DNA from: Mobula hypostoma
Taxonomy: Eukaryota
Reading direction: 5' to 3'
NCBI RefSeq assembly: GCF_963921235.1
Contig: NC_086108.1
Coordinates: 20,150,001 to 20,214,000, forward strand
DNA: 64,000 bases
Under the pieces are notes generated by a model. The model made no database searches and was not told the DNA's origin. It saw nothing but the letters and a program-made list of their open reading frames with translations. Made by a program: the position numbers and the translations under genes. Shown here piece after piece: positions 10,831-39,399 of this stretch (the first letter of the stretch is position 1; every line of letters starts with the position of its first letter).

Positions 10831-13331
10831 CCCCCCTGCCATGTTAGCTTAAACCACTCCCAGCAGCTCGAGTAAACCTGCCCACAAGGATATTGGTCCC
10901 CCTTGGATTCAAGTGCAACCCGTCCTTTTTGTACAGATTATACCTGCCACAGAAGATGTCCCAATTATCCAGCAATCTGAATCCCTGCCCCCGCTCCAAT
11001 TCCTTAGCCATGCATTTATCCGCCAACTCATTCTATTCCTATCCTCACTGTCGTATGGCACAAGGCAGCAATCCTGAGATTACTATCCTTGAAGTCCTGT
11101 TTCTCAGCTTCCTTCCTAACTGTTTTCAGAACCACCTCCCTTTTTCTACTTATGTCATTGGTACCAATGTGTACCATGACTTCTGCCTGCTCACCCTCCC
11201 TTTTCAGGATATTGTGGACACACTCAGAAACATTGTAGACCCTGGCAACTGGGAGACAAACTACCATCTGTGTTTCCTTCTTGTGTTCAGAATCACTTAT
11301 CTGACCCCCTGACTGTGGAGTCCCTTATTTCGGCTGCCATCCTCTTGAGTTCCCTACCCTTCTGAGCCACAGGGAGGCCGTGCCCCCAACAGTACTCAAA
11401 ATGAAGTTCTAATTGTTGAGGGGGGATGGCCACAGGGGTGTTCTCCACTATCTGACATTCTTCCTTCCCTATCCTGACAGTCACCCTTGAGGTGACTACC
11501 TCCCTGTAGCTCCTGTCTATCTCCTCCTTAATCTCCCTAACAAGCCGAAGGTCATCGAGCTGCAGCTCAAGTCCCCCAACACAGTGTATAAGAAGCTGCA
11601 TCTCAATGCACCTGGTGTAGATGTGGCCATCGAGGAGTCTTCTGGAAATGTCACATCTGACACTCAGAACAGAATACCAGCTCTGCAGACATACCCCTAT
11701 TCTCTCAAGAGTTACTTCAGGAAAAAGAATTAAGAAATAAGGAATGAACTTACCTACTTACCTTGCCTCCACCTGTTCTTGCTGAAGCCTTGTTGAGCCA
11801 AAGCCTTACTACTCTGACATGGACTACTCCGATGAGAACCACTCCCACAATGACCGCTCCACTAGGTGGTACCTCTCTTTATAGAGACTGGGTTTTTAAA
11901 GCTCTTCACCGGACCTGTACGGGAACACTTTTGTTGCATCTGTGCAGTACTCCATTCGAAAGATTTGCTATGAAACTATGACCCTTCCAACCAAATGGAA
12001 CATTTAGCCCACCAGTCCCCATTAGAAGTTTCTACATTTCAATAAGATCACCTTCTGGGAAAAAAGCTTCTGACTATCCACACGATCAATGCCTCTCATC
12101 ATCTTATACAATTCTATCAGGTTAAATCTCTTCCTCCGGCACTCCTAGGATAACAGGCTGAGTTCACTCAAGCTGTTCTCATAAGGCATGCTCCCCAATC
12201 CAGGCAACATCCTTGTAAGTCTTCTCTGCACCCTTTCTATAGTTTTCACATCCTTCCTGTAGTGAGGTGACCAGAACTGAGCACAGTACTCCAAGTGGGG
12301 TCTGACCAGGGTCCTATATAGCTGTAACATTACCTCTCAGCTCTTAACCTCAGTCCTACAGTTGATAAAGGCCAATGCACCATATGTCTTCTTTACTACA
12401 GAGTCAATCTGCACAGCAGCTTTGAGTGTCCTATAGACTCGGACCCCAAGATCCTTTTGATTCTCCACACTGCCAAGTGTCTTACCATTAATACTATAAT
12501 CTGCCATCATATTTGACCTACCAAAATGAACCACCTCACACATTACCTGGGTTGAACTCCATCTGCCAGTTTTCAGCCCAGTTTTGCATACTATCGATGT
12601 CCCACTGTAACCACACTATCCACAACACCACAACCTTTGTGTCATCAGCAAATTTCCTAACCCATTCCTCCACTTCCTCATCCAGGTCATTTATAAAATT
12701 CACGATGAGAAGGGGGTCCCAGAACAGATCCCTGAGGCACACCACTGGTCACCAACCTCCATGCAGAATATAACCCGTCTACAACCACTCTTTGCCTTCT
12801 GTGGGCAAGCCAGTTCTGGATCCACAAAGCAAGGTCCCCTTGGATCCCATCCCTCCTTACTTTATCAATAAGCCTTGCATGGGGTACCTTGTCAAATGCC
12901 TTGTTGAAATCCATTCACACTACATTTACTACTCTACCTTCATCAATGTGCTTAGTCACATCCTCAAAAAATTCAATCAGGCTCGTAAGGCACGACCTGC
13001 CTTTGACAAAGCCACACTGCCTCTCCAAATGTTCATAAATCCTGCCTCTCAGGATCTTCTCCATCAACATACCAATCACTGAAGTAAGACTCACTGGTCT
13101 ATAATTTCCTGGGCTATCTCTACTCCCTTTCTTGAATAAGGGAACAACATCTACAATGTTCCAATCCTCCTGAACCTCTCCCATTGATGATGCAAAAATC
13201 ATTGCCAGAGACTCACCAATCTCTGCCCTCACCTCCCACAGTAGGTTGGGGTACATCTCATCCGGTCCCAGTGACTAATCCAACTTGATGCTTTCCAAAA
13301 GCTCCAGCACATCCTCTTCCTTAATGTCTAT

Positions 13332-33600: not shown

Positions 33601-36600
33601 AACTGCTGGAGTCAGTTATCAAAGATGTGACAACAGCACATTTGGAAAGCGGTGAGATCATCGGACAAAGTCAGCATGGATTTGTGAAAGGAAAGTCATG
33701 TCTGACGAATCTCATAGAATTTTTTGAGGATGTAACTAGTAGAGTGGATAGGGGAGAACCAGTGGATGTGGTATATTTGGATTTTCAAAAGGCTTTTGAC
33801 AAGGTCCCACACAGGAGATTAGTGTGCAAACTTAAAGCACACGGTATTGGGGGTAAGGTATTGATGTGGATGGAGAATTGGTTAGCAGACAGGAAGCAAA
33901 GAGTGGGAATAAACGGGACCTTTTCAGAATGGCAGGCGGTGACTAGTGGGGTACCGCAAGGCTCAGTGCTGGGACCCCAGTTGTTTACAATATATATTAA
34001 TGACTTGGATGAGGGAATTAAATGCAGCATCTCCAAGTTTGCGGATGACACGAAGCTGGGTGGCAGTGTTAGCTGTGAGGAGGATGCTAAGAGGATGCAG
34101 AGTGACTTGGATAGGTTGGGTGAGTGGGCAAATTCATGGCAGATGCAATTTAATGTGGATAAATGTGAAGTTATCCACTTTGGTGGCAAAAATAGGAAAA
34201 CAGATTATTATCTGAATGGTGGCCGATTCGGAAAAGGGGAGGTGCAACGAGACCGGGGTGTCATTATACACCAGTCATTGAAAGTGGGCATGCAGGTACA
34301 GCAGGCGGTGAAAAAGGCAAATGGTATGCTGGCATTCATAGCGAGAGGATTCGAGTACAGGAGCAGGGAGGTACTACTGCAGTTGTACAAGGCCTTGGTG
34401 AGACCACACCTGGAGTATTGTGTGCAGTTTTGGTCCCCTAATCTGAGGAAAGACATCCTTGCCATATAGGGAGTACAACGAAGGTTCACCAGATTGATTC
34501 CTGGGATGCCAGGACTTTCATATGAAGAAAGACTGGATGAACTGGGCTTGTACTCGTTGGAATTTAGAAGATTGAGGGGGGATCTGATTGAAACGTATAA
34601 AATCCTAAAGGGATTGGACAGGCTGGATGCAGGAAGATTGTTCCCGATGTTGGGGAAGTCCAGAACAAGGGGTCACAGTTTGAGGATAAAGGGGAAGCCT
34701 TTTAGGACCGAGATTAGGAAAAACTTCTTCACACAGAGAGTGGTGAATCTGTGGAATTCTCTGCCACAGGAAACAGTTGAGGCCAATTCATTGGCTATAT
34801 TTAAGAGGGAGTTAGATATGGCCCTTGTGGCTACGGGGATCAGGGGGTATGGAGGGAAGGCTGGGGTGGGGTTCTGAGTTGGATGATCAGCCATGATCAT
34901 AATAAATGGCGGTGCAGGCTCGAAGGGCCGAATGGCCTACTCCTGCACCTATTTTCTATGTTTCTATACTCTATTCCTCTAGAAATGAATGCCAACATTG
35001 CATTCGCCTTCTTCACTACCGATTCAACCTGGAGGTTAACTTTAAGGGAATCCTGTACGAGGACTCCCAAGTCCCGTTGCATCTCAGAACTTTGAATTCT
35101 TTCCCCATTTAAATAATAGTCTGCCCGTTTATTTTTTCTGCCAAAGTGCATAACCATACACTTTCCAACATTGTACTTCATTTGCCACTTCTCTGCCCAT
35201 TCTTCCAATCTATCCAAGTCTCTCTGCAGACTTTCCGTTTCCTCAGCACTACCAGCCCCTCCACCTATCTTCGTATCATCAGCAAACTTAGCCACAAAGC
35301 CATCTATTCCATATTCCAAATAGTTGATGTACAATGTAAAAAGAAGCAGTCCCAACACGGACCCCTGTGGAACACCACTGGTAACCGGCTGCCAACCAGA
35401 ATAGGATCCCTTTATTCCCACTCTCTGTTTCCTGCCAATCAGCCAACGCTCTATCCACGTATGTAACTTTCAAGTAATTCCATGGGCTCTTATCTTGTTA
35501 AGCAGCCTCATGTATGGCACCTTGTCAAAGGCCTTCTGAAAATCCAAATATACGACATCCACTGCATCTCCCTTGTCTAGCCTACTGGTAATTTCCTCAA
35601 AAAATTGTAATAGGTTTGTCAGGCAGGATTTTCCTTTAAGGAATCCATGCTGAGTTCTGCCTATCTTGTCATATGCCTCCAGGTACTCTGTAACCTCATC
35701 CTTGACAATCGACTCCAACAACTTCCCAACCACCGACGTCAAGCTATCAGGTCTATAATTTCCTTTTTGCTTCCTTGCCCCCTTCTTAAATAGCGGAGTG
35801 ACATTTGCAATCTTCCAGTCTTCCGGAACCATGCCAGAATCTATCAACTTTTGAAAGATCATCGCTAATGCCTCCGCAATCTCCACAGCTACTTCCTTCA
35901 GAACACGAGGGTGCATTCCATCTGGTCCGGGAGATTTATCGACCTTTAGCCTATTCAGCTTCCTGAGTACTTTCTCTGTCGTAATTGTGACTGCGCATAC
36001 TTCTCTTCCCTGCCACCCTTGAGTGACCGGTATCCTGCTATCTTCCTCAGTGAAGACTGATGCAAAATACTTGTTCAGTTCCTCTGCCATCTCCTCATCC
36101 CCCATTACAATTTCTCCAGTATCATTCTCTATCGGTCCTATATCTACTCTCACCTGTCCTTTACTCTTTATATAATTGAAAAAGCTTTTAGTATCCTCTT
36201 CGATATTATTTGCTAGTTTCCTTTCATAGTTAATCTTTTCTCTCTTAATGACCTTTTTGGTTTCCTTTTGTAAGCTTTTAAAGACTTCCCAATCCTCTGT
36301 CTTCCCACTAATTTTTGCTTCCTTGTATGCCCTCTCCTTAGCTTTAACTTTGGCTTTGACTTCTCTTGTCAACCACGGTTGCATCCTTTTTCCACTCGAA
36401 AATTTCTTCTTTTTTGGAATATACCTGTCTTGCACATTCCTCATTTCTCGCATAAACTCCAGCCACTGCTGCTCTGCCGTCTTTCCCGCCAGTGTCTCTT
36501 TCCAGTCAACTTTGGCCAGTTCCTCTCTCATGCCACTGTAGTTTCCTTTACTCCACTGAAACACCGACACATCAGATTTCGGCTTCTCTTTCTCTAATTT

Positions 36601-38110
36601 CACAGTGAACTCAATCATGTTATGATCACTGCCTCCTAAGGGTTCCTTCACCTCACTCTCTCCAATCACCTCCGGTTCATTACACAATACCCAATCCAGT
36701 ACAGCCGATCCCCTAGTGGGCTCAACAACAAGCTGTTCTAAAAAGCCATCTCGCAGACATTCTACAAATTCTCTCTGAGATCCAGTGCCGACCTGATTTT
36801 TCCAATCTACTCACATGTTAAAATCCCCCACAATTATCATAACACTGCCCTTCTGACAAGCCTTTTCTATTTCCAGTTGTAATTTGTAGTCCACATCCCT
36901 GCAGCTGTTTGGAGGCCTATAAATAACTGCCATCAGGGTCCTTTTACCCCTGCTATTCCTTAGCTCAACCCATAAAGATTCTGCAGCTTCCGATCCTATA
37001 TCACCTCTTTCTAATGATTTAATATCATTTCTTACCAATAAAGCCACGCCTCCCCCTCTGCCTACCTTCCTATCCTTCTGATACACCATGTATCCTTGGA
37101 CGTTCAGCTCCCAGAGACATGCATCCTTTAGCCAGGTCTCAGTGATGGCCACAATATCATACCTGCCAATCTGTAGCTGTACGACAAGATCATCCACTTT
37201 ATTTCTTATGCTGCGTGCATTTAAGTACAACACCTTAAGACCAGTATTTGATACTTTTTGCTTTGATTTCACTGCAACTCATCCCAATGGCTACACATTT
37301 GCCCCATCACCTGCCTGTCTTTCCTGACATCTTTACTGCTCACTATCTTAGATTTATTTCTGTTTTCCCCTTCCTCCGCTCTATCATTCCGGTTCCCATC
37401 CCCCTGCCAAATTAGTTTAAACCCTCCCTAACAGTTCTATTAAACTTTCCCGCCAGGATATTGGTCCCCTTCGGGTTCAGGTGTAACCCTTCCCCCAGAA
37501 GAGATCCCAATTATCCAAGAATCTGAAGCCCTGCCCCCTACACCAGTCTCTCAGCCAGGCATTCATCTGCCTGATCCGACTACTCTTGCCCTCGCTAGCA
37601 CGTGGTACAGGTAGCAATCCCGAGATTACTACCCTGGAGGTCCTGCTTCTTAGCTTTCTTCCTAACTCCTGGAAAACTCTCTTCAGGACCTCCTCCTTTG
37701 TCCTATCTATGTCATTGGTACCAACATGTACCAAGACAACTGGCTGCTCACTCTCCTCCTTTAGAATATTCAGGACCTGATCCAAGACATCCCGTACCTT
37801 GGCACCTGGGAGGCAACACACCATGCGGGTATCTCTGTCAGGCTCACAGAATCTCCTGTCTGTTCCCCTGGCTATGGAATCCCCCACAACTACCGCATTT
37901 CTCTTCACCCTCCTTCTCTCCTGCACAACAGCGCCAGGCTCAGTGCCAGAGACCCGGTCACCGTGGGCGTCCCCCGTCAGGTCATCCCCCTCAACAGCAT
38001 CCAGAACAAGATATTTGTTGCTGAGTGGGACAGCCACAGGGGTGCACTCCACTATCCGGGCATTTCCCTTCCCTCTCTTGACAGTGACCCAGTGTTCTGA
38101 CCCCTGTAGC
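30676..38110 (-). mobile_element. CR1 subfamily C (30676-31288 + 34968-38110), with esterase ORF1 part and ORF2, split by CR1-B
   Basis: CCATAAGA tail. The junction CTGCTCC|TATACTCTATTCC is contiguous in the copy at ~63135-63155. Motifs VGDSIARG and LYLNARSI. Confidence 0.9.
31289..34967 (+). mobile_element. Young CR1 subfamily B with ORF1 esterase half and near-complete ORF2 (few lesions)
   Basis: ORFs 31346-31753, 31853-32305, 32448-34469 (673 aa) and 34494-34877; (TTTCTATG)n tail. Confidence 0.95.
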
Positions 38111-38474
38111 CTTGGACATGATCTGAAACATCCCAGACCCCAGCACCTGGGAGGCAAACTACCATCCGAGTTTCTTTCCTGCGTCCACAGAATCACCTGA
38201 CCCCCCTAACTATAGAGTCCCCTATCACTATTGCTTTCCTCTTCCTTTCCCTACCCTTCTGAGCCACAGGGCCAGAATCTGTGCCAGAGGCACAGACACT
38301 GTTGCTTCAGGTCTTAGGTAGGCTGTCTCCCCCAACAGTACTTAAACAGGAATACTTATTGTCAAGGGGTACAGCCACAGGGGTACTCTCTAGTACCTGA
38401 CTCTTCCCCTTCCCTCTCCTGACTGTTACCCACTTATCTGTCTCCCGTGGCCCCGGTGTGACCAACTGCCTATA

Positions 38475-39020
38475 GAGGTGTATGGGGTGTCAGGGAGGGG
38501 TAGCAACTCTGGTGGAGGAACATGTCACGTCCTTTTCAAGGTGGTTAGTCCACCTTTGGTCCCCACCTGGCACTCGGCTCTCACCTGTGGCTCCTCGTAG
38601 CTGTTTGCATGCGACAGCAGCCACACCCCGGGTAATGGCTTCGACAAGCCAGCTAAACCAGGTGAGGGTAGCCGATGGGTCTCAAACCCTCGGTGAGATA
38701 GGGAGTTGTCTATCCCAGCATGTGAAGCCAGACTCCGGCGGATTGAGCGGACGAGACCAATGGAAGGTCCAACGGTCAAGAAGGCAGTCTCTGCAAACAT
38801 TGTGGAACGTGTAGAGCCCGACAAGACACAGAAGACATCCTGGTCATCCACTGCGCCTCGTCCCATCTCCAGCTGTCTCGACTCTATCTTGCCACTGGAT
38901 CCAGATGGGAATTGGGAAAAGAGAATGAGGCTCTCCCTCACTTAAATCCAAATCATGCGCTAGTCTCAACACCATCAATGGTGTCGAGGTCTTCATCGAC
39001 GACGACGATGGACGAACATG
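38475..39020 (+). mobile_element. ~546-bp non-coding RTE-like non-autonomous retroelement inserted in CR1-D2 ORF1
   Basis: The host CR1 reads CTGCCTATA|ACTCCTTTC across it (ATA repeated at both junctions). 5' HDV-like fold; 3' hairpins CTCAACACC/GGTGTCGAG and TTCATCG/CGATGGA. Confidence 0.75.
38484..38675 (+). ncRNA. HDV-like self-cleaving ribozyme (predicted; cleavage 5' of G38484, catalytic C38653)
   Basis: P1 GGGGTGT(38484-90)/ACACCCC(38623-29); P2 TCGGCT-CTCACCTG(38574-87)/CAGGTGAG..AGCCGA(38659-75); P3 GGC/GCC; L3 TCCTCG; P1.1 CC/GG(38630-31); P4 TGGCTT/AAGCCA; J4/2 GCTAA. Confidence 0.8.
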
Positions 39021-39399
39021 ATAACTCCTTTCTATCACCTCCTCGCTCTCCCTGACCAGACGAAGGTCATTGAGCTGCAACTCCAGTTCCCTACCGCGGT
39101 CCCTTAGGAGCTGCAGCTCGACACACCGGGTGCAGATATGGCCATCCGGCAGGCTGGGAGACTCCAGGACCTCCCACATCTGACACCGAGCACAGAACAC
39201 CAGTTTCACACACATACTTCCTTTCCGCAATTGACACAGGTAACCTACCTAGCCTTATTACCGCATAAGCCCGCTGAGCCAAAGCCCTATCACTCTGCCA
39301 CCTCTTATTCCGCTACCTGCTACAAACGCTGCCTGCTGGATATGGCGGTCTTCTTTTTAAACATTTCCCGCTCTACTGGCTGATGTCATGCGCCTAGCC

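Follow-up and report, generated by a model that had tools for sequence, protein, structure and literature searches.

The window analysed here is a 64,000-nucleotide (nt) stretch of the genome of the ray Mobula hypostoma (NC_086108.1, positions 20,150,001 to 20,214,000 of the forward strand), and it contains a 546-bp non-autonomous retroposon whose 5' ~200 nt form a nested double pseudoknot like that of the ribozyme from hepatitis delta virus (HDV). This segment is likely to be an HDV-like ribozyme that trims the element's RNA at its 5' end, a reading we favour because the pattern of fixed and drifting positions among copies, the exact match of the terminal heptamer, as a complement, with P1' (the 3' strand of helix P1), and the strands left unpaired in nested folds all fit what is seen in R2 ribozymes. 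The retroposon belongs to a family (family A) with at least 5773 first-look candidates in the 3.48-Gb genome of this ray, and two older sister families, B1 and B2, share the fold.

An earlier sequence-only reading of the window had placed all of the HDV-type elements, in the right order, at the head of a small retroelement. Inspection of the letters bears out each element at its position, the fold does head a real, high-copy family, and the left junction proposed for the insertion is set at 38474/38475 by contigs spanning empty sites. The elements are listed below, with P, L and J denoting paired, loop and joining segments, and with percentages giving the proportion of paired cells in the alignment of copies described further on.

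38475–39020, + strand: whole non-autonomous retroposon, 546 bp, inside open reading frame 1 (ORF1) of a minus-strand CR1-like long interspersed nuclear element (LINE)
38472–38474 and 39021–39023: 3-bp target duplication ATA, on both flanks of the retroposon
38475–38481, + strand: outer heptamer, the probable 5' strand of the working P1; the family majority has GGGGTGT, this copy GAGGTGT, in which A38476 gives an A.C mismatch
38484–38490, + strand: inner heptamer GGGGTGT, taken as the P1 5' strand in the sequence-only reading; 7/7 Watson-Crick with 38623–38629
38485–38575, + strand: structured J1/2 domain: stem-loop of 91 nt with a closing helix of 10 bp (38485–38494 with 38566–38575), from minimum free energy (MFE) and RNAalifold folds
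38577–38587, + strand: P2 5' strand, with the 8-bp core CTCACCTG at 38580–38587 and three wobble-rich pairs at 38577–38579; 94.8% paired (helix 7)
38589–38592, + strand: P3 5' strand GGC(U), with GGC at 38589–38591; 98.4% paired (helix 8)
38593–38599, + strand: L3 core CCUCGUA (L3 opens with TCCTCG at 38592–38597); CC 38593–38594 lies in P1.1
38600–38618, + strand: hairpin inside L3 (GCUGU, 9-nt loop, ACAGC), adjoining the P3 3' strand (P3'); 96% paired (helix 10)
38619–38622, + strand: P3 3' strand (A)GCC, with GCC at 38620–38622
38623–38629, + strand: P1 3' strand ACACCCC, the same in the three families
38630–38631, + strand: P1.1 3' strand GG, pairing with CC 38593–38594; 89% paired (helix 9; 42 and 39 of 46 rows)
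38632–38635: GTAA following the GG of P1.1
38636–38651, + strand: P4 hairpin TGGCTT-CGAC-AAGCCA, 6 bp with the loop CGAC, from MFE and RNAalifold folds
38652–38658, + strand: J4/2 GCUAAAC (GCTAA at 38652–38656), with C38653 the candidate catalytic cytosine
38659–38669, + strand: P2 3' strand, with the core CAGGTGAG at 38659–38666

The equivalent of C38653 is present in all 30 of the family-A copies, and G38597 is the counterpart of HDV G25. L3 departs from the usual form: it is 28 nt long, compared with the usual 7–8 nt, and a 5-bp hairpin (38600–38604 with 38614–38618), omitted from the sequence-only reading, stands between the L3 letters and P3'. L3 carries the U, CC and G that are kept in all three families, yet it is no closed 7–8-nt loop. 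The nested MFE and RNAalifold folds both leave nt 1–10 of the element and the P1' stretch unpaired and free for the pseudoknot. P2 had been described as extended, and its 8-bp core stands; a 6-bp outer part (38574–38579 with 38670–38675) was rejected: an A.C mismatch interrupts it in the majority of the family, B1 does not retain it, and it overlaps the J1/2 stem.

How often such a site arises by chance was estimated with an HDV-type descriptor that was written after the site had been seen, and which being post hoc flatters the site. It requires a P3 of 3 bp, L3 as TCCNNG plus 1–25 nt, a 7-nt P1' and GG, followed by a P4 hairpin, C-N-AA, a P2 of at least 6 bp, and a P1 strand no more than 160 nt upstream. 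One site is found on the two strands of the window. In dinucleotide shuffles there was 1 full match and 3 core matches in 150, and 1 full match and 5 core matches in 1000 more, giving a similarly post hoc chance rate of ~0.002 per window (2 full matches in 1150 shuffles).

The boundaries of the retroposon and its 3-bp duplication are fixed because contigs of unoccupied LINE copies, from 3 runs, pass from 38471 straight into 39021; in these contigs the three letters ATA match on either side of the junction. LINE ORF1 reading frames flank the retroposon on the left and on the right, and the retroposon itself is non-coding. All 40 of the scored genome matches extend from nt 1–9 to nt 529–546 of the element, at 90–93% identity, and the aligned copies have target-site duplications (TSDs) of 6–15 bp. 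The pattern CT-N9-GGCTCC-NN-GTAGCTG, which spans part of the fold, has 3865 exact matches in the genome compared with none in a reversed control, and the P2 5' strand is almost invariant among the first 100 of these 3865 matches. When copies were picked by the last 129 nt alone (n=20), 12 reached nt 16 or further 5', seven were 5'-truncated (at nt 98–398), and one was internally deleted. We note that in one copy (L062; G000:C96:48113261-48114803) nt 3–27 are fused to nt 275–546, such that the ribozyme core is gone and both ends are kept.

The family has the features of a short interspersed nuclear element (SINE): it is short, non-coding and high in copy number, its copies have TSDs, some of them are truncated at the 5' end, and the 3' tail is of the LINE type. 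ARAGORN detects no tRNA gene in the retroposon and its 5' region matches no Rfam family, and so no tRNA-, 5S- or 7SL-type head is recognisable; with up to 2 mismatches allowed, the + strand has no B box. Because of these three results we describe it as an apparently LINE-dependent, SINE-like retroposon without a recognisable RNA polymerase III (pol III) head. A B-box-like 11-mer with one mismatch is present on the minus strand at 38678–38688, and is probably a chance occurrence, as the window contains 69 such matches where 96 would be expected.

The sister families came to light through the layout of contigs, which have extra depth over 38544–38615, many of them matching only 38551–38673 with other sequence on either side. 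These contigs show a variant of L3 with AA at 38595–38596, and the 15-mer containing it has 1323 copies in the genome and none in a reversed control. Thirty loci fetched by means of the variant fall into two older families, B1 (23 loci, many of them decayed) and B2 (seven loci). Both are ~510–560 bp long, with homology to family A in the first ~390 nt and with a different 3' module; window identities among A, B1 and B2 are 0.57–0.90 up to column 390 and 0–0.7 beyond it, and the three differ by 10–40% in 30-nt windows.

Comparison of the majority states (computed on 28 A, 23 B1 and six B2 copies) separates positions that are fixed from positions that drift. P1, P1', P2, P3, the L3 letters U-CC-NN-G, the GG of P1.1 and J4/2 G-C-Y-A-A-A are the same in all three majorities. 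L3 positions 4–5 (38595–38596) vary, being CC or TC in A and AA in the sister families, as does J1.1/4, which reads GCAA, TACA or TAAA. In P4, three of the six pairs differ between the majorities (G-C to C-G, C-G to U-A, and U-A through U.G to C-G), and the row counts show double-sided change in four of the six. Two other helices change in a similar manner. One is the hairpin within L3, which has lost a pair in B2, a U and an A being missing from opposite arms; the other is the J1/2 stem, where U.G in one family corresponds to U-A in another and an inserted C is matched by an altered 3' arm. The covariation across P1, P2, P3 and P4 that was called for when the fold was proposed is therefore seen in part: P4, the J1/2 stem and the L3 hairpin have compensated changes, and P1, P2 and P3 have none.

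Pairs were counted on 46 of 60 loci, leaving out L007 and L017, in which the motif is off the anchor, and twelve B1 copies that are truncated or carry large deletions (L031, L032, L033, L035, L038, L040, L042, L048, L049, L055, L057 and L058). For the pseudoknotted structure, 92.3% of 2835 cells pair, compared with 38–50% when the partners are slid by 1–3 columns. Helices 2–6 of the J1/2 domain are paired in 91–96% of cells, and at one pair among them (43/82) 32 rows have G-C and 10 have A-U. Double-change cells number 43 compared with 18.2 in shuffles, and none of 500 shuffles reaches the observed number; of five whole-structure measures, two do not exceed the shuffles. For P1, ragged 5' junctions bring the paired cells down to only 79.8%. 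A separate observation concerns two nearby copies in opposite orientation (G000:C1:59833104 and 59837998), which share the rare P2 5' variant GTCACCCG in place of CTCACCTG.

The position of the element's 5' end bears on which heptamer forms P1. The family majority starts GGGGTGT-AT-GGGGTGT-CAGG, such that the complement of P1' is present twice, and only the inner heptamer had been noticed earlier because the outer copy reads GAGGTGT in the window copy. Majority nt 1–7 exactly complement the 7 nt that separate P3' from the GG of P1.1, and by simple arithmetic a perfect 7-mer complement would fall at a single fixed position with a chance of ~6e-5. We examined the 5' ends of 29 family-A copies (L024 has no anchor), 23 of which have a TSD of at least 6 bp. 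Twelve of these 23 begin at majority nt 0–2 (nt 0 is the start in two, nt 1 in six and nt 2 in four), and the remaining eleven are spread from -14 to +10. In B2, the TSD is 10 bp or longer in three of the seven copies, each of which begins at nt 1–2. With the outer heptamer, nt 1 of P1 therefore coincides with the genomic 5' end, these being genomic ends and not RNA ends. The junctions of L027 and L023 have five to six extra bases between the TSD and nt 1, which in L027 read like a repeat of element nt 4–9; they look like the products of template jumping or microhomology, as in R2 copies cut at their own end.

The sequence-only reading had paired the inner heptamer with 38623–38629 and expected 5' ends to pile up at G38484. 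The P1' assignment holds, as does the expectation of a pile-up at a P1 heptamer, but the ends gather at the outer heptamer (nt 1–7, 38475–38481) and the earlier register is probably off by 9 nt. Judging by the copies, the working P1 is probably the outer heptamer, and the predicted cut lies 5' of 38475, the first base of the element. A cut at 38484 is disfavoured because daughter copies would lose nt 1–9, yet the great majority keep them.

The alternative, that the inner heptamer is the working P1 and that cleavage takes place 5' of G38484, at a point 9 nt into the element, seems to us improbable. It draws on the window copy, where only the inner heptamer pairs 7/7 with 38623–38629, on a few copies that start near nt 7–10 (L018 and L021), and on R2, where duplicated P1 segments permitting two cut sites are described (PMC3774820). 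However, nearly every full-length copy, and each of the three families, has nt 1–9, and the inner heptamer with CAGG (38485–38494) is locked in the 10-bp stem with 38566–38575, which covaries between families and is kept through compensating changes.

If the 5' domain is a ribozyme that uses the outer heptamer, a simple scheme can be drawn for the propagation of the element. The retroposon would be transcribed within longer host or neighbouring transcripts, a step we infer because the retroposon has no recognisable promoter. The ribozyme would cut just 5' of the element's first G (38475), and self-cutting would give an RNA with a uniform 5' end matching the genomic copies. A LINE reverse transcriptase (RT) would then recognise the family-specific 3' stem-loop and tail, and the RNA would be copied into new sites by target-primed reverse transcription. 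Read-through transcription, catalysis and the partner LINE are the parts of this scheme that we infer.

Several points weigh against a ribozyme. Searches of Rfam gave no HDV-type match at the gathering score, nor, with 601 nt and with the 101-nt core, at E values up to 10. The 19-nt hairpin that interrupts L3 has no precedent in the literature searched, a comparison in which the published descriptors were not included. The cut-site pair is G-C in 26 of 46 rows, with G.U in three, A-U in one and no pair in 16; a G.U wobble at the base of P1 matters in the HDV and CPEB3 ribozymes, and is not universal. P1, P2 and P3 are invariant between families and so are neutral on pairing, and the covariation comes from about three lineages, whose shared changes lead the shuffle counts to overstate independence. 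A fixed transcription start would also yield a defined 5' end.

The main rival is a structured, non-catalytic head: the 5' domain would be a conserved structured RNA or an internal promoter that does not cut, its HDV likeness being coincidental in a GC-rich multi-helix fold, and it might serve in binding of RT or a ribonucleoprotein, in stability, or in transcription start. The absence of an Rfam HDV-type match, the interrupted L3, the G-C rather than G.U at the cut site, and the alternative source of uniform 5' ends all favour it, and the confinement of compensation to the peripheral helices (P4, J1/2 and the L3 hairpin) is expected of any structured RNA. We nevertheless regard it as unlikely, as the terminal 7 nt exactly complement the 7 nt between P3' and GG, and the fixed sites are the HDV-critical ones (L3 U...G, P1.1 CC/GG, and J4/2 C then AA), whereas the variable ones (L3 positions 4–5, J1.1/4 and P4) also vary among known ribozymes (PMC3774820). 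The ARAGORN, Rfam and + strand B-box results (the last at up to 2 mismatches) likewise speak against a head of the tRNA, 5S or 7SL type. It is highly improbable that the likeness arose by chance in a repeat that has decayed and that no function at all is conserved; although the window copy is ~9% diverged from its relatives, and very many windows were screened, such that at ~0.002 sites per window some chance occurrence is to be expected, the fold is shared by three diverged families with compensating changes and is anchored at the element terminus.

Returning to the ribozyme reading, we lean, if only slightly, towards a broader proposal, which is that these families represent a vertebrate SINE superfamily in which an HDV-like self-cleaving ribozyme replaces the pol III promoter, that they depend on read-through and self-trimming, and that their ribozymes constitute a new structural subclass. 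Such a subclass, marked by the helix within L3, the structured J1/2 of 95 nt and Watson-Crick pairing at the cut site, would be missed by published descriptors and Rfam models.

The genomic HDV ribozyme has the order P1, P2, P3, L3, P1.1, P4, J4/2, with UCCUCG in L3 and GGGCAAC after P1. The ray fold resembles it in the order of the elements, in the UCCUCG of the window copy, in the GGGCAAC of the family-A majority, and in a J4/2 with C followed by N-A-A, and differs from it in the G-C cut-site pair, the 95-nt J1/2, the 19-nt L3 hairpin and a short P4. The L3 likeness drawn by the sequence-only reading is real for this copy, but UCCUCG is a minority state, present in five of 30 copies, with UCCCCG in the other 25, and the near-identity to HDV stems in part from a C-to-T change that the window copy has in common with a minority of the others. 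The letter-level likeness to HDV is not ancestral, because the sister families read UCCAAG in L3 and GGUACA or GGUAAA after P1. A deltavirus origin was considered and rejected, the sister families departing from HDV at exactly the letters that the window copy matches. Among dispersed retroelements, RTE and Baggins of insects and nematodes reportedly carry 5' HDV-like ribozymes (Ruminski et al. 2011); these are likewise dispersed non-LTR elements with a 5' end processed by an HDV-like ribozyme, and they differ in being autonomous LINEs of invertebrates. For the ray family, no link to RTE turned up in the searches for a partner LINE described below.

The closest parallels come from R2. HDV-like ribozymes set the 5' ends of R2, with a J1/2 of 23 to >700 nt and a highly variable P4, and with the catalytic C and a few L3 positions rigidly kept; duplicated P1 segments that extend the 5' end are described there by Eickbush et al. 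(PMC3774820). The ray family is similar in its long J1/2, variable P4 and duplicated P1, and in 5' junctions that vary when an element is cut at its own end (PMC3774820). With both R2 and its SIDEs it shares a putative ribozyme at the extreme 5' end that would define the RNA end from a co-transcript, and SIDEs, which are internally deleted non-autonomous derivatives of R2, resemble it further in having kept a ribozyme and a 3' module (PMC3774820; PMC3414825). The differences are that R2 is present only in 28S ribosomal DNA and is co-transcribed with rRNA, whereas the ray family is dispersed in thousands of copies with ordinary TSDs and has the extra hairpin in L3, and that no R2-like partner turned up in the searches for a partner LINE described below.

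A second group consists of the L1Tc (Pr77), NARTc and SIDER elements of trypanosomatids. HDV-like ribozymes head the non-autonomous NARTc and SIDER elements (PMC4035085; PMC3383444), and the likeness lies in these being dispersed, LINE-dependent short elements with position +1 of the ribozyme at the element's first base (PMC4035085). Ribozymes of the L1Tc type start with C1 and not with a wobble G (PMC4035085). They are nonetheless minimal, at ~77 nt, double as promoters, belong to protists and share no sequence with the ray family, whose vertebrate fold is ~200 nt long and has two structured insertions. Hammerhead retrozymes and Penelope-like elements (PMC7229834; 2026 bioRxiv preprint) are also non-autonomous retroelements with a small self-cleaving ribozyme, and differ in the class of ribozyme and in the mobilisation route proposed, through circular RNA and Penelope RT.

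HDV-like ribozymes at the 5' ends of retrotransposons are already established, and trimming by them is known for R2, RTE-type and L1Tc-type RNAs, mostly in invertebrates and protists. We found none in a vertebrate SINE or a cartilaginous fish in the literature searched, although one of the searches was poorly aimed. What appears to be new is the setting, a SINE-like vertebrate superfamily that is dispersed and high in copy number; the build, with its L3 helix, structured J1/2 and G-C cut-site pair; and what looks like clean evidence for duplication of P1 into outer and inner copies, for which the ray family would be a worked example of the route to 5' extension proposed for R2. If active, this would be a vertebrate dispersed high-copy SINE-like family headed by an HDV-like ribozyme, and it would mean that a helix in L3 can be tolerated by the HDV core, and thereby widen the descriptors used in genome searches. 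There would also be thousands of potential self-cleaving sites in host transcripts, at sense-strand copies within genes, and if the subclass is real, similar ribozymes could hide in other genomes.

The remainder of the retroposon consists of two parts:

38676–38964, + strand: non-coding body; A, B1 and B2 are homologous here as far as element nt ~390
38965–39020, + strand: family-specific 3' module, with a stem-loop at 38965–38988 and then a GAC-rich tail ending GGACGAACA(TG), as defined from aligned copies

Beyond GGACGAACA, other copies run on as (AAC)n or (AC)n. The stem-loop at 38965–38988 is a near-perfect 11-bp hairpin on the + strand directly ahead of the tail; A38968 is G in most copies, making the stem perfect there. 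It is a hairpin of the type that stringent LINE reverse transcriptases recognise, and B2 carries a different hairpin at this position.

The window copy is a decayed member of the family. It is ~9% diverged from its relatives, and its TSD is only 3 bp. There is the A.C mismatch in the outer P1, leaving only the inner heptamer at 7/7, and the first P4 pair is U-A compared with C-G in the majority, reflecting CpG decay on both sides.

Several searches were made for a partner LINE. BLAST of the retroposon against the window gave only matches to the LINE flanks and no partner LINE, and the tail motif has no second exact copy within the window. A genome search with the last 129 nt of the element returned no LINE, all 20 of the fetched copies being copies of the retroposon, and the sequence upstream of the shortest of the copies (L072) contains no LINE frame that leads into it. 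At their 3' ends the CR1-like LINEs in the window have (TTTCTATG)-type repeats, which are unlike the GAC-rich tail of the retroposon. One example is a plus-strand CR1-like LINE, the 3' end of which is at 34940–34975 (+ strand) in TTTCTATG-type repeats, the usual CR1 tail.

The LINE surrounding the retroposon is represented by CR1-like pieces over 35470–39250 (minus strand), with an esterase-type ORF1 (GDSL/SGNH-like motif), an endonuclease and an RT. A further copy of the start of its ORF1, without the retroposon, is present at 11507–11576, with 81% identity to 39022–39091. The ORF1 segment at ~38404–38452 recurs at 38063–38111 with 78% identity, and because of this we interpret the region as two LINE 5' parts arranged head to tail, with the retroposon in the upper one.

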